DNA of 62,761 nucleotides, filler included, from Coriobacteriales bacterium (lineage in GTDB: Bacteria; Actinomycetota; Coriobacteriia; Coriobacteriales; UBA8131): NCBI GenBank assembly GCA_031263105.1. It is 5 parts of 5 records of this genome, joined end to end, with 100 filler letters (N's around TTAATTAATTAA, not from the genome) between each part and the next. Parts side by side here need not be neighbours in the genome. Positions count along the whole stretch, not along the records: positions 44,832 to 50,077 come from JAISGJ010000007.1; 4 more parts are not named here. One strand, written 5' to 3'. Below the pieces are notes generated by a model. It ran no database searches, was not told the DNA's origin, and saw only the letters and a list, made by a program, of their open reading frames with translations. The position numbers and the translations under genes were made by a program. Below, piece after piece: positions 44,832 to 50,077 of the stretch. Within the stretch, counting starts at the first letter, position 1, and every line of letters begins with the position of its first letter.

Positions 44832-45283
44832 GCCGCCCCGGCCCCGCCGCCCGCTGCCGCCCCGGCCCCGCGGCCCGCTGCCGCCCCGACCCAGCCGCCC
44901 ACTGCCTCCCCGGCCCCGCCGCCCGCGGCCACCCCGGCCCAGCCGCCCGCTGTCCCCCCGGCCCAGCCGCCCGCTGACACCCCGGCCCAGCCGCCCGCTG
45001 TCACCCCGGCCCAGCCGCCCGCTGCCGCCCCGACCCAGCCGCCCACTGGCACCCCGACCCAGCCACCCACTGTCACCCCGGCCCAGCCGCCCACTGTCAC
45101 CCCGACCCAGCCACCCACTGTCATCCCGAGCCTGCCGAGGGATCTTCGACCGCGCAAGCGGTCGACTGCGGCCAGAGGCGTTTCTCGGCCTGTGGTTGGA
45201 CACTGCGTGTCCAAGGATTCCTCGGCTCCGGCGCGGCCTCCGGCAGCGCCTCAGCTCGGAATGACAGTGGGGGTGTCAGTAAC
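44832..45283. repeat. Family A palindromic element with tandem 24-bp units
   Basis: CCCAGCCGCCCACTGTCACCCCGG-like units, then CTGTCATCCCGAGCCTGCCGAGGGATC...GCTCGGAATGACAG. Confidence 0.8.
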
Positions 45284-45286
45284 ACT

Positions 45287-46981
45287 ATGACAGACGGAAG
45301 CGGACATATGGACGGCAGGGACGGCGGCGTTGGCAGCGGCGGCTGGTACGGAAGCGGCAGGAGCGCCGCCCCCGCCCGCCTCGGCCCCTACGAGCTGAGG
45401 GGGGAGCTGGGGCGCGGGGCCATGGCGCGCGTGTGGAGGGCGTGGGACCCGAAGCTCGGGCGCGAGGTGGCCGTGAAGGAGCCCCTGTTCGACGAGCGTC
45501 TCTCCGAGGACGTGCTGCGGGAGATGGGCGAGCGCTTCGTGAGGGAGGGCATGGCGGCGGCGCGGCTGAACCACCCCGGCATCGTCACCATATTCGCCGC
45601 CGACGTCTACGACGGCCGCCCCGCCATCGTGATGGAGCTCGTGGACGGGGTGACGCTCGGGGACCTGCTGGAGGCCGGCCCCCTCGCGCCCAGGGCCGCG
45701 CTCGACGCGCTCGACCAGCTGCTCGACGCGGTGGGCTACGCCCACTCGCAGGGCGTCGTGCACCGCGACATCAAGCCCGACAACGTGTTCGTGACAAGAG
45801 ACGGGCGCGTGAAGCTCGGCGACTTCGGCATAGCGCACGTCGCGGACTCCTCCCTCACCAGGAGGACCCAGGTGGGCACCGTGCTCGGCACCCCCGGCTA
45901 CATGGCCCCCGAGCAGGCCACGGGTGCGCCCGTCGACAGCAGGGCCGACCTGTTCGCGATAGGCGTGATGGCCTACGAGATGCTCGCGGGCAGGAACCCC
46001 TTCGGGGCCGGCGGGGGCACCGACCCCACGGCGCTGCTGTACCGCATCGTGCACGAGGCGCCGCCCCCGCTGCCCTCATCCGCGGCCGAGGGCCTGCCCG
46101 CCGACGTGCGCCCGGCGGTCCTCGCCGCGCTCGCCAAGGACCCGGCGGGCCGCCCGCAGGATGCCGCGTCCCTCAAGGCGATGCTGCACGGCGCGCCCGC
46201 GCCCGCGCCGGGTGCCGCGCAGGCATCTCCCCTTGCGAAGGCCGCATCCTCCGGCAGCAGGAGGTGGCTGCCCTACGCCATCGCCGCCGCCGTGGGCATC
46301 GCGGTCCTCGGCGCGGTGTTCGTCCTCGCCACCTCCGGCGGCGGCGGCGGGGGCGCGGCAGCGGGCGGAGGGGCCGTGGCGGCCGACGGCCCGTCGGGAG
46401 GCGAGGGGGGCGCGGGCGCCGCCGTCGCAGCCGCCGTGCCCCGGGTCGACGGCGTGGGCGACCGCGTGGAGTTCGGCGCCTGGCGCGGCGGGCCCATCGA
46501 GTGGCGCGTGCTCGCCGTGGAGGGCGGCAGGGCGCTGGTCGTCTCGGAGGACGTGCTGGAGAGGCGCGGGTACCACGGCAGTCGCTCCTCGGTCACCTGG
46601 GCGGAGAGCGACATCCGCGCATGGCTGAACGGCGAGTTCCTGGACACCGCCTTCACCGGGGAGCAGCAGGGGGCCATCGCCCTCTCGCAGATTTCGAACC
46701 CCGACAACCCCGAGTTCGGCACCGAGGGCGGCCCGGACACCGAGGACAGGGTGTTCCTGCTCTCCATCGACGAGGCCGAGCGCTACTTCTCGGGCAGCGA
46801 TGACCGTGTTGCGGAGCATCTCGGCGAGGACAGGGCGCTCCCGTGGTGGCTCCGCTCGCCCGGCGCCGACGGCCACCGCGCCGCGGTCGTCATCGTCGTC
46901 GGCGGCGTCCGCGTTGACGGCTACAGCGTCTACTGCGGCGGCGGCGTGCGCCCAGCCTTATGGCTGAATCTGCAATCCTGA
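45287..46981 (+). CDS. Membrane Ser/Thr kinase with a C-terminal DUF6273 (CLec-like) ectodomain
   Basis: LGRGAMARV, VAVK, HRDIKPDN, DFG, YMAPE; one TM; VEFG...PIEWRVL, DRVFLLSIDEA, WWLRSPG...GVRPALWL. Confidence 0.9.
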   Translation: MTDGSGHMDGRDGGVGSGGWYGSGRSAAPARLGPYELRGELGRGAMARVWRAWDPKLGREVAVKEPLFDERLSEDVLREMGERFVREGMAAARLNHPGIVTIFAADVYDGRPAIVMELVDGVTLGDLLEAGPLAPRAALDALDQLLDAVGYAHSQGVVHRDIKPDNVFVTRDGRVKLGDFGIAHVADSSLTRRTQVGTVLGTPGYMAPEQATGAPVDSRADLFAIGVMAYEMLAGRNPFGAGGGTDPTALLYRIVHEAPPPLPSSAAEGLPADVRPAVLAALAKDPAGRPQDAASLKAMLHGAPAPAPGAAQASPLAKAASSGSRRWLPYAIAAAVGIAVLGAVFVLATSGGGGGGAAAGGGAVAADGPSGGEGGAGAAVAAAVPRVDGVGDRVEFGAWRGGPIEWRVLAVEGGRALVVSEDVLERRGYHGSRSSVTWAESDIRAWLNGEFLDTAFTGEQQGAIALSQISNPDNPEFGTEGGPDTEDRVFLLSIDEAERYFSGSDDRVAEHLGEDRALPWWLRSPGADGHRAAVVIVVGGVRVDGYSVYCGGGVRPALWLNLQS

Positions 46982-47018
46982 ATCTTTTAATCCCGCCCGC
47001 CGTCGCAGGCGGCGGGCG
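46844..47018 (+). other. Putative DGR variable region with IMH-like tail and downstream hairpin
   Basis: Run of NNC codons between WWLRSPG and VRPALWL; A/T-richer tail; hairpin CGCCCGCCGTC-GCA-GGCGGCGGGCG at 46994-47018. Confidence 0.6.
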
Positions 47019-47079
47019 ACGAGGCACGGGCAAGTATTTGGCATGGGTGCGGGCAACTCGATGACGGAAGGGCAGGGCC

Positions 47080-48912
47080 ATGCTTGACAAGAACGGACAT
47101 ACTGACGGCGGCAACGGCAACGGCAGCGCCGCCTGTCTCGGCCCCTACGAGCTGAGGGGGGAGCTGGGGCGCGGGGCCATGGCGCGCGTGTGGAGGGCGT
47201 GGGACCCGAAGCTGGGGCGCGAGGTGGCCATCAAGGAGCCGCTGTTCGACGAGAGGCTCTCCGGGGACGTGCTCGCCGAGATGGGCGAGCGCTTCGTGAG
47301 GGAGGGGATGGCGGCGGCGCGGCTCAACCACCCCGGAATCGTCACCATATTCGCGGCGGACGTCTACGACGGGCGCCCCGCCATCGTGATGGAGCTCGTG
47401 GACGGGGTGACGCTCGGGGACCTGCTGGAGGCGGGGCCTCTCGCGCCGAGGGCCGCGCTCGACGCGCTCGACCAGCTGCTCGACGCGGCGGGCTACGCGC
47501 ACTCGCAGGGCGTGGTGCACCGCGACATCAAGCCCGACAACGTGTTCGTGACAAGAGACGGGCGCGTGAAGCTCGGCGACTTCGGCATAGCGCACGTGGA
47601 GGACTCGTCGCTCACGAAGAGGACGCAGGTCGGGACCGTCCTCGGCACCCCCGGCTACATGGCTCCCGAGCAGGCGATGGGCGCTGCCGTCGACAACAGG
47701 ACGGATCTGTTCTCCGTCGGCACGATAGCCTACGAGATGCTGACGGGAAGGAACCCCTTCGGGGCCGATGAGGGCACCGACTCCACCACGCTGCTGTACC
47801 GCATCGTGCACGAGCCGCCGCCCGCGCTCCCCGCCTACGCGACCGAGGGGCTGCCCGCCGACGTGCGGCCCGCCGTGCTCGCGGCGCTCAACAAGAATCC
47901 CGCCGACCGACCGCAGAGCGCCGCGTCCTTCAAGGCCATGTTGCACGGCGCGCCCGCGCCCGCGCCGGGTGCCGCCGCGCAGGCCTCCCCCCTCGCGCAG
48001 GCAGCCTCCTCCGGGAACAGGAGGTGGCTGCCCTACGCGCTGGCCGCCCTTGTGGGCGTCGCGGTGCTCGGCGCGGTGTTCCTCCTCGCCACCTCCGGCG
48101 GCGGCGGCGGGGGCATGGTGGTGGGCGGAGGGGTCGTGACGGAGCAGGTCGCCGACCCGACAGTCGGGGAGGTCGAGGAACCCGAGGAACCCGAGCCGGC
48201 CCCCGAAGAACCTCCTGAAGAGGAGCCCCCCGAAGGCTTCGTCATCGACATGGGCGCCATCGATGCGGCGATCTCCGCCGTGACGAGCAGCGACCATGTC
48301 GCCGTGGGAATAATCGACCTCGAGTATGACCAGACCTTTCTCAGCGGCAACGCACAGTCGAGGTTCGAGGCGAGCGGCTTCTACCTGCCCATCGTGAACG
48401 TCGCCGCTGCCTCCGGTATCGGCACCTCCAGCGAGATCCCCAACGTGCTGCGTACCATGAGCAACAACGATGCCAACAACCTCATAGGCATGATCGGCGG
48501 GTTCTCCGAGCTCAACAGGCGCATCGCTGACGCGGGCCTCAACGGCACCTCGTACAACCGCCTGTTCGGGGACACGGGCAGCAGCGAGGAGAACCTGACC
48601 ACTGCGGCGGATGCCGTCAAGTCGTTGCAAGCGGTCTATAGGGACGGCGGCTACACGGCCATGCAGGCCGACCTGACCGCCATAGGGGTGCAGCCGCCGT
48701 CCGGGGTCTCCGTCAACGCCCACAGCGGCATCGGCATAAAGACCGCCGTCAATGTCTTCGCCGTCGTCTCAACGCCCGATGCGACCTATGCGGTCGCCGT
48801 GCTGACCACGGGGATGGGCGGCTCCTCCGAGGCGGCCAAGGCGGCGGCGGCGCCGCTCATCAGCACGCTTCTCTCCCTTATCAACAGTCAGGTGGAGTCC
48901 TATGCCAAATAA
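47080..48912 (+). CDS. Membrane Ser/Thr kinase with a degenerate beta-lactamase-like ectodomain
   Basis: Kinase domain nearly identical to the 45287 gene; C-terminal FEASGFY, SNNDANN, ENLTTA, HSG. Confidence 0.88.
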   Translation: MLDKNGHTDGGNGNGSAACLGPYELRGELGRGAMARVWRAWDPKLGREVAIKEPLFDERLSGDVLAEMGERFVREGMAAARLNHPGIVTIFAADVYDGRPAIVMELVDGVTLGDLLEAGPLAPRAALDALDQLLDAAGYAHSQGVVHRDIKPDNVFVTRDGRVKLGDFGIAHVEDSSLTKRTQVGTVLGTPGYMAPEQAMGAAVDNRTDLFSVGTIAYEMLTGRNPFGADEGTDSTTLLYRIVHEPPPALPAYATEGLPADVRPAVLAALNKNPADRPQSAASFKAMLHGAPAPAPGAAAQASPLAQAASSGNRRWLPYALAALVGVAVLGAVFLLATSGGGGGGMVVGGGVVTEQVADPTVGEVEEPEEPEPAPEEPPEEEPPEGFVIDMGAIDAAISAVTSSDHVAVGIIDLEYDQTFLSGNAQSRFEASGFYLPIVNVAAASGIGTSSEIPNVLRTMSNNDANNLIGMIGGFSELNRRIADAGLNGTSYNRLFGDTGSSEENLTTAADAVKSLQAVYRDGGYTAMQADLTAIGVQPPSGVSVNAHSGIGIKTAVNVFAVVSTPDATYAVAVLTTGMGGSSEAAKAAAAPLISTLLSLINSQVESYAK

Positions 48913-49963
48913 CGAGGGCAAAATGCCGGTGATGCCAGCACAGAGGCGCAGGGTTCCTGTTGTGGCGGTCTTGGGGCTTGCGGCAGTGGTGGGGGCCCTC
49001 GTCTGCTGGGTGCTGCTGGCGCAATGCGACCGCAAGCCCCTGCTCGACGCGCCCGATGCCTTCGATGTCCAGACGGTGCTCGACAGGGAGCCAACCGCGT
49101 ATGCGCCGACCGACCAGAACGAGGTTCTGACCGAGAACACCGGGCTCGGCGATGCTGACGATGCGTCGCAGGGCGATGCCGGGGGCGCAGGGGGCGCAGG
49201 TAGCGCGAGGGACGCAGGGGACGACCCCTTTGCCGAGAGCGACTTCACTGCCTGCGCGAACCAGACCTATTACAGCATCCTCTATTTCGACGAGGACACG
49301 CTCTACACCAGCGGCAACTCGTCAAGGACGCCGTCTGCAAGCGTGATAAAGGTCTTCATCATGGAGTACGCCTTCCATCTGATGGGCACGGGGGCATTCG
49401 CACCGGACTCTGTGATCGGGGCGAGCACTCTGAGCGCACTCGTCGAGACGATGATCCAGGACAGCAACAATGAGGCGACCAATGCCCTCATCGATGCCTT
49501 CGGCATGGATGAGATCAACGCCTTCCTGGCAGAGAGCGGCTACTCCGACACGGTCCTGCAGCGGCATATGCTCGACAACGTCGCCAGGAGCGCCGGCTTG
49601 GAGAACCTCACCTCGCTCGACGACTGCATGAGGATACTCGAGAAGCTCTATGCGAATCGGGAGACCTACCCCTACTCTGAGATGCTGGCGATCATGAAGG
49701 GCCAGAACGTCAGGACGAAGATCCCCCTGAGCCTGCCCGCCGACGTCAGCGTCGCCAACAAGACAGGGGAGCTGGACGACGTCGAGAACGACATAGGCAT
49801 CGTCTTTGCTGCGGACGAGGGCTCGGACTACGCGATAGTCGCCCTGACCTTTGAGCCCTTCAGCTCGAGCGGCGCACGGTCCGCCATCGCCCAGCTCGCA
49901 CGGTCCGCCTACGACTCGCGCTTCGCGACCTCGCCGACGCAGCAGCAAGCGGATGCGCAGTGA
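48902..49963 (+). CDS. Membrane-anchored serine hydrolase (class A beta-lactamase-like)
   Basis: SASVIK (SxxK), SNN, ENLTS, KTG, NDIG; N-terminal TM. Confidence 0.88.
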   Translation: MPNNEGKMPVMPAQRRRVPVVAVLGLAAVVGALVCWVLLAQCDRKPLLDAPDAFDVQTVLDREPTAYAPTDQNEVLTENTGLGDADDASQGDAGGAGGAGSARDAGDDPFAESDFTACANQTYYSILYFDEDTLYTSGNSSRTPSASVIKVFIMEYAFHLMGTGAFAPDSVIGASTLSALVETMIQDSNNEATNALIDAFGMDEINAFLAESGYSDTVLQRHMLDNVARSAGLENLTSLDDCMRILEKLYANRETYPYSEMLAIMKGQNVRTKIPLSLPADVSVANKTGELDDVENDIGIVFAADEGSDYAIVALTFEPFSSSGARSAIAQLARSAYDSRFATSPTQQQADAQ

Positions 49964-50077
49964 GGACTGGTTACACGTGTCGGGGGGGCCGGGGCGGCCC
50001 GGCGGGGGCGCGGCGCCGGCGGCGCCGCCCGCGCCCGCCCCCCCGCCCGCCCGGGCGGCCCCGCCGCGGCCCCCGCG

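Follow-up and report, generated by a model that had tools for sequence, protein, structure and literature searches.

A membrane receptor kinase gene of a Coriobacteriales bacterium probably ends in a variable region written by a diversity-generating retroelement

Diversity-generating retroelements (DGRs) have been described in cyanobacteria with target proteins that join a Ser/Thr kinase to a C-terminal C-type-lectin domain and are mostly cytosolic (PMC7517822), kinase-annotated DGR targets that carry a domain of the C-type-lectin kind (CLec) are found in a survey of metagenome-assembled genomes (PMC11661182), and DGR targets served in trans have been described in Thiohalocapsa (bioRxiv 2023.09.22.558884). 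In gut phages, the domain DUF6273 was reported to be C-lec-like and a DGR target (PMC10743442, PMC11792537, bioRxiv 2024.10.15.618418), with the variable region at its C-terminus (PMC11792537 and bioRxiv 2024.10.15.618418). Published examples thus exist both of DGR targets of the kinase-lectin type and of variable regions in DUF6273, and a kinase fusion of DUF6273 is not mentioned in the DUF6273 passages of the latter three reports. Here, we analyzed a 62,761-nt stretch of DNA, filler included, joined from 5 parts of 5 records of a Coriobacteriales bacterium genome (GCA_031263105.1; hereafter the window), which carries at 45287–46981 (+) an open reading frame (ORF) for a 564-aa predicted receptor kinase with a C-terminal DUF6273 domain. 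We consider, with a probability of roughly 0.8, that the last ~39 codons of the kinase outer domain, 46844–46960 (+), are a DGR-type variable region that was written by a DGR.

Similar to the cyanobacterial kinase-lectin targets (PMC7517822), the protein has an N-terminal Hanks-type kinase and a C-terminal variable domain of lectin fold, and, as many of those targets are remote from their cassette, the gene in the window would likewise be a remote one. Unlike the mostly cytosolic cyanobacterial proteins, its predicted membrane helix would place the variable domain outside the cell; further, the lectin-fold domain is Pfam DUF6273, and the host is a gut bacterium of high GC content with DGR-bearing relatives in records titled Coriobacteriales. 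With the gut-phage DUF6273 targets, that is, the tentaclins and Mtd-like proteins (PMC10743442, PMC11792537, bioRxiv 2024.10.15.618418), it shares the domain and the C-lec-like fold, while those are described as phage proteins for receptor binding or decoration whose own genome also carries the cassette, and the window encodes a cellular kinase for which no cassette was found.

The evidence that carries our reading came from the DGR templates of relatives. A genome of the same family and another genus (G010) has a complete one-strand cassette on contig C110, consisting of a 584-aa target ending in DUF6273, a 143-aa Avd-like gene, assigned by its position where Avd genes sit in DGR cassettes, an AAC-rich template, and a 337-aa reverse transcriptase (RT; RVT_1 E 6e-12). 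A second genome of this family, from a further genus (G007), carries a template, an RT and a downstream target on contig C114. A pattern search over 401 genomes of the order gave matches in 8, with templates in these two genomes only. The templates translate as NNANN-AA-N-V-NND-G-N-V-NTN-G-NN-V-DNDNN-G (G010) and NNSNN-AA-N-V-NND-G-N-V-NTN-G-NN-V-NNNN-G (G007), and the template guessed in a preliminary description of the window, NNNNN-AA-N-V-NNN-G-N-V-NNN-G-NN-V-NN, is a near-exact match to the real one of G007.

The G007 template aligned gaplessly to 46844–46960 over 117 nt, with the same length and the same fixed codons. In detail, the window differs from this template at 29 of the template's 36 adenines, of which 16 lie at codon position 1, 12 at position 2, and 1 at position 3, vs. 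11 of its 81 other bases, 9 of these at third positions (Fisher P 3e-12). The 11 non-adenine changes are of the silent sort that also separates templates from different genera. The A-to-N mutagenesis of an AAC-rich template proposed in the preliminary description agrees with differences that concentrate on adenines. In two proven pairs, the changes were 28 of 36 adenines and 1 of 84 other bases (G010 template vs. its remote target on contig C43), and 21 of 33 adenines and 0 of 87 other bases (template vs. cis target of the Lachnospiraceae-titled record L122). On this comparison, the G010 case shows that the DGR lineage can serve remote targets in trans. A further comparison was made with locus L067, which has low-GC flanks and encodes a small DUF6273 protein that, upstream of the stretch, is 39% identical to the window domain. 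The variable stretch of L067 is nevertheless GC-rich and equals the window at nearly all fixed sites; in codon 17, which is ACC in the G007 and G010 templates, both carry T as the third base. Such shared fixed bases would be expected had closely related templates been the source of both.

The codon composition of the stretch was consistent with this origin. The stretch, WWLRSPG … GVRPAL, begins with WWLRSPG at 46844–46864, continues in a core of 27 codons at 46865–46945 (+), and is followed by VRPALWL at 46946–46966 and the stop codon TGA at 46979–46981. Core codons 1–14 are GCC GAC GGC CAC CGC GCC GCG GTC GTC ATC GTC GTC GGC GGC, and codons 15–27 are GTC CGC GTT GAC GGC TAC AGC GTC TAC TGC GGC GGC GGC; the coordinates and codons listed earlier for 46844–47018 proved exact on re-reading. 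Of these codons, 26 are NNC or NNT (25 end in C), vs. 59% C/T-ending codons gene-wide, and all 27 residues are reachable from AAC or AAT by changes of the adenines. Within the gene, 3 of 538 sliding windows equal the codon bias of the core, all 3 overlapping it, and the probability of at least 26 of 27, conditional on the amino acids and on the genome codon usage (1133 long ORFs), is 6.8e-4. By itself, the codon bias is suggestive and moderately unusual, but not decisive. The single other codon, GCG, is also GCG in the templates of the relatives, so third-position decay is not visible in the core; in the genome, G-ending codons make up 36–39% of those for Val and Ala and 24% of those for Gly (GGG).

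Directly at the end of the stretch lies an A/T-richer tail, TTATGGCTGAATCTGCAATCCTGAATCTTTTAATC (46958–46992, +), which includes the stop codon and is a candidate target element resembling an initiation of mutagenic homology (IMH). A near-identical tail was found at the same offset in the cis and remote targets of G010, in L122, and in the variable-region-like ends of two more genomes (G021 and G024), and it is absent from 10 of 10 template repeats; counted in its strict form at the same offset among the sequences bearing the anchor motif, it is present in 5 of 75 variable-region-like ends and in 0 of 10 templates. Since it spans the stop codon, the tail is conserved as DNA, not as protein. 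The tail pointed out in the preliminary description is thus not just present, but a variable-region-specific element common to proven targets, and it may be the IMH, the target-side element that marks where cDNA integration starts.

After the tail follows a GC-rich hairpin (46994–47018, +) of 11 pairs, one of them T-G, with the loop GCA, ~35 nt past the end of the template homology. Like Mtd of phage BPP-1 (PMC3240598), the window gene has a C-terminal variable region of lectin fold followed by a variable-region-specific sequence and a GC-rich inverted repeat. The BPP-1-type hairpins are, however, described with stems of 7–10 pairs, 4-nt GRNA loops, and a distance of 4–34 bp from the variable region (PMC3240598), from which the window hairpin differs in its stem with a T-G pair, its distance, and its 3-nt loop, and the fold likeness to Mtd reaches only Z 5.4. 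The 11-bp stem with its GCA loop was described correctly at the outset; the loop is not of the described DGR type, and the hairpin is not conserved in relatives: when 5 other tail-bearing loci were folded, L013 and L122 had a similar hairpin behind the tail, and L011, L014, and L024 had none. The 101 nt around the hairpin folded no better than shuffled sequences (z 0.13), and the hairpin was also considered as a terminator with a T-tail, of which none was called there. It could be either a DGR target hairpin or a transcript end.

This end of the gene was also seen in metagenomic assemblies. The run that held contig C37, on which the gene lies, best (X1) bears a termite gut metagenome label, contains 85% of the contig's words and is its likely source sample; its assembled contigs were examined. 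The summed contig depth at 46940–47114 was 69 in X1 vs. ~20 on either side, and in another run (X3) loose contig ends begin at 46939 and 46977, which indicates that other contigs of these metagenomes share the tail and the 3′-end of the variable stretch.

The distribution of related sequences was then compared among genomes. DNA similar to 46400–47030 was found in 13 of the 41 related genomes searched, own genome counted, including 9 of 24 of the same family. Several of the matches are limited to the variable stretch alone, and distant hosts resemble one another more closely in the DNA of this stretch than elsewhere in the domain. Both the template family and the target tail are present in Coriobacteriales- and Lachnospiraceae-titled records, and the range of the template family extends to records of Propionibacteriaceae and Christensenellaceae. 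Such templates were carried by the genome_contigs records L122, L127 (Christensenellaceae), and L134 (Propionibacteriaceae), which belong to different phyla, and several records of this type derive, by their titles, from insect-gut-type assemblies. The templates across phyla, together with the identical target tail in L122, suggest that the whole module has spread horizontally.

The DGR of G010 (L031 and L032) resembles the window gene in template family, in tail, and in having a target on a contig other than that of the cassette; it differs in that its template is present and in that the N-terminal parts of its targets are, by eye, TIR-like and P-loop-NTPase-like. The TIR-like motif opens the cis target at L031 (G010:C110 7738–9492 and 7127–7258, both −). 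The variable region of this cis target falls 33 nt (11 codons) short of the template, whereas that of the remote C43 target is of full length. The same variable DUF6273 end with differing N-terminal parts was observed at L032 (G010:C43), L033 (G024:C59), L042 (G021:C51), and L043 (G005:C25); among these, the N-terminal parts by eye comprise a P-loop-NTPase-like one, a 933-aa HD/ATPase-like protein, a membrane protein bearing a zinc-ribbon-like motif, and a further Ser/Thr kinase that has a membrane helix.

The protein encoded at 45287–46981 consists, in order, of a Ser/Thr kinase, one membrane helix, a Gly/Ala-rich linker, and the DUF6273 domain. The kinase domain (residues 35–246; 45389–46024, +) matched Pfam PF00069 with E 1.5e-42 and 146.2 bits vs. 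a cut-off of 31.7, and the motifs GRGAMARV, VAVKE, HRDIKPDN, DFG, and APE were recognized by eye in the translation; judged by this score and these catalytic motifs, the product is a Hanks-type Ser/Thr protein kinase. A hydrophobic stretch of ~23 residues directly preceded by RR (residues ~327–349, WLPYAIAAAVGIAVLGAVFVLAT; 46265–46333, +) looks like a single membrane helix in the translation, so that the transmembrane Ser/Thr receptor kinase named in the preliminary description is borne out by profile and by eye. The DUF6273 domain (residues 414–561; 46526–46969, +) matched PF19789 with E 1.3e-28 and 100.4 bits vs. a cut-off of 23.5, covering profile positions 2–171 of 172.

The fold of the outer domain was modeled with AlphaFold2 for residues 385–564 from 40 aligned sequences, which gave a mean pLDDT of 97.4, and the model was compared with known structures by VIA-align. 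The highest match was the N-terminal part of an IgA peptidase of Thomasclavelia ramosa (9qa6_A; Z 19.5, rmsd 2.1, 172 residues aligned), followed by the C-terminal domain of Legionella Lcl (8q4e_A; Z 8.8, rmsd 3.7, 115 aligned) and the Treponema DGR variable protein TvpA (2y3c_A; Z 8.1, rmsd 4.1, 132 aligned); dozens of C-type lectins came next in the list at Z 5–6.4, and Bordetella phage Mtd scored Z 5.4 (1yu0_A; rmsd 3.1, 108 aligned). Foldseek concurred on the first two structures. In the model, the DUF6273 domain has a C-type-lectin-like fold with the variable-region-like stretch at its C-terminal end, in keeping with the C-terminal CLec placement proposed earlier, with the profile match, and with the DUF6273 reports as far as their relevant passages go (PMC10743442, PMC11792537, bioRxiv 2024.10.15.618418).

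Based on the length, the fixed codons and third-position bases, the adenine-focused differences from the templates of the relatives, and the shared tail, the stretch is best explained as DGR-written. In such a process, an RT with its Avd partner would copy the template RNA while misreading adenines, and the cDNA would take the place of the sequence as far as the tail; ~19 positions on the surface of the lectin-like domain would be rewritten, while the scaffold AA, V, G, V, G, V, G would stay. With the domain outside the cell, an altered binding surface would let the kinase answer new ligands and signal them by phosphorylation. The absence of visible third-position drift and the intact tail favor recent writing. 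For a current diversification of 46865–46945 we see about even odds, and likewise for a cassette still existing in this organism. Because the cassette is neither on contig C37 nor elsewhere in the assembly, the gene would be a remote target, and diversification in trans in this organism is plausible.

A number of results weigh against a DGR origin of the stretch or its continued activity. The source genome is metagenome-assembled (2.9 Mb in 250 contigs, 86% complete, 6.5% contamination), and the following negatives for the own genome apply to this assembly. A second copy of 46780–47030 was not found, the best other match being 41 nt at 81% identity; RT was absent by the Pfam RVT_1 profile, and the G010 RT as query reached a best E of 0.3; AAC-rich stretches were absent, with at most 9 AAY codons per 30, and a regular expression for the motif found none either; and a scan with adenines as wildcards left 23 non-adenine mismatches in 108 nt for the best non-self site, which is the chance level. 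Beyond the own genome, a degenerate pattern for template and variable region had 0 matches in metagenome_contigs and 0 in viral_contigs. A 21-mer anchor retrieved 75 loci from metagenome_contigs and no cognate template among them, most being other DUF6273 ends and ~3 being template-like by translation (L099, L097, and the truncated L062). A cognate template was likewise absent from 80 RT loci kept from at least 561 relatives in genome_contigs, where that of G007 was still the best, and from the 401 genomes of the order; this best template anywhere, from another genus, keeps 8 non-adenine mismatches in 108 nt. Further, the G010 RT as query found an RT in only 3 of 34 family genomes. One 585-nt contig of run X1 with depth 18 crosses 46629–47213 unchanged, which is weak evidence as contigs drop rare variants. 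Codon windows like the core occur elsewhere in the genome (230 of 536,646), and the earlier caution that high GC enriches C-ending codons was justified, as 22 of 1133 long ORFs hold such a stretch. Last, the genome is incomplete and contaminated, and contig C37 is unusually GC-rich.

In view of these searches, the expectations of the preliminary description were answered in part. A genome-wide search for a copy differing at template adenines and the search for a DGR RT both found none in the 86%-complete assembly; by the description, the proposal would fail with no template or RT in the genome or its relatives together with a region invariant across reads and strains, and a template and an RT were found in G007 and in G010. 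Its hypermutable receptor kinase, diversified in trans, is supported in part, as far as a DGR-written sequence is concerned, while the template and RT that should accompany it were not found in the assembly. A second DUF6273 gene of the own genome (contig C234, L036 1414–2049, +) was tried as a sister target and set aside, since its flanks differ and it contains AAG, ACA, and CTG codons. This gene ends …WWWLRTPGIAGHAAFVSKDGTVNAHGYNILNRYGGGARPAMWLDV, with most codons ending in C, and may be an older, decayed variable region.

The strongest rival explanation is that the stretch is a relic, written by a past DGR whose cassette has since been lost, so that the kinase keeps one frozen tip and evolves ordinarily. 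This would account for the RT and template missing from the assembled genome, for the single form in the contigs of run X1, and for an RT in 3 of 34 family genomes vs. sequence like 46400–47030 in 9 of the 24 searched; precedents are reported, in the passages concerned, for phages that keep both DUF6273 targets without a DGR (bioRxiv 2024.10.15.618418) and for targets no longer diversified (bioRxiv 2023.09.22.558884). However, third positions of the core have not drifted (26 of 27 codons NNY, the exception as in the templates) despite the use of G-ending codons in this genome, the tail is intact, and the family genomes are all incomplete bins (51–93% complete). Repeats of template and variable region tend, in addition, to break assemblies, which also counts against a loss of the cassette. 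On balance, a relic is a serious possibility that falls somewhat short of even odds.

Alternatively, contig C37 could be mis-binned and come from another community member whose genome holds the cassette. The contig is short (5246 nt; window positions 44832–50077), the bin has its 6.5% contamination, and the GC content of 70.9%, vs. a contig mean of 64.9% and 64.5% for the genome, is the 6th highest of 250 contigs and ~2 sd above the mean. But this value is inside the range of the bin (0.58–0.71), the closest DNA matches to the domain are genomes of the same family, and by coverage nothing examined sets C37 apart from the bin, which makes mis-binning improbable.

If no DGR had ever acted, the stretch would be an ordinary variable C-terminal beta-hairpin of DUF6273, its C-ending codons due to GC-rich codon bias. 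The high GC content at third positions and the codon pattern in 22 long ORFs fit this, kinase-fused DUF6273 is common (PF00069 in 20 of the best 120 homologues listed, own protein included), and many kinase-fused homologues have, by eye, K, E, Q, W, or M at variable positions. As these residues are unreachable from AAC, it is unlikely that those homologues are DGR-written, and only some kinase fusions would be DGR targets. This explanation is very improbable, given the template-like length and fixed bases, the differences on template adenines at codon positions 1 and 2 (P 3e-12), a DNA tail common to proven targets in another phylum (L122), a stretch whose DNA differs less between distant hosts than does the remainder of its domain, and 27 of 27 residues in the AAC-reachable set.

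Some features beside the gene were observed as well. The 90% cluster of the protein has two entries, both from the C37 sequence, so a single strain is represented. Directly downstream lies a second kinase gene (47080–48912, +), whose product is 82% identical to the first over residues 1–350, comprising the kinase, the juxtamembrane part, and the membrane helix, while its outer domain shows no relation to that of the first and hits Beta-lactamase2 (E 9e-8); the next gene (48902–49963, +) encodes a 353-aa Beta-lactamase2 protein (E 4e-37). The kinase pair has the look of a recent duplication after which the sensor domain was exchanged. Upstream of the kinase gene, C37 starts with a 24-nt tandem repeat (44832–45128; 12.4 copies, 88% match). 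The segment 45015–45189, which overlaps the repeat's end, had a summed contig depth of 6508 in run X1 vs. ~20 for the gene; by this depth, sequence at or beside the repeat seems widespread in the metagenome.

Going beyond the DGR-written origin, we tentatively propose that the protein is a surface receptor kinase with a ligand-binding tip that a DGR module rewrites in trans. This module would be shared by horizontal transfer among bacteria of different phyla in termite guts, and its cassette would sit on a replicon of its own, perhaps a mobile one, which binning and assembly miss; this fuller proposal is possible, but doubtful enough that we would not wager on it at even odds. If it were true, the protein would be a bacterial counterpart of a diversifiable signaling receptor, in which hypervariable recognition outside the cell is coupled to phosphorylation inside. 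In the window gene, DGR kinases, so far mainly cytosolic and cyanobacterial, and DUF6273 variable regions, so far mainly of gut phages, come together in one membrane receptor, whose variable tip is predicted to lie outside the cell, in an actinobacterium-like organism of the gut. The occurrence of the relatives' module on TIR-like, P-loop-NTPase-like, and HD/ATPase-like proteins fits the published idea of conflict and signaling sensors tuned by DGRs, and the comparison with the templates of relatives makes a variable region recognizable without its cassette. If the region is active, the receptor would be a simple model in which to study how a bacterium benefits from coupling a hypervariable sensor to a kinase.

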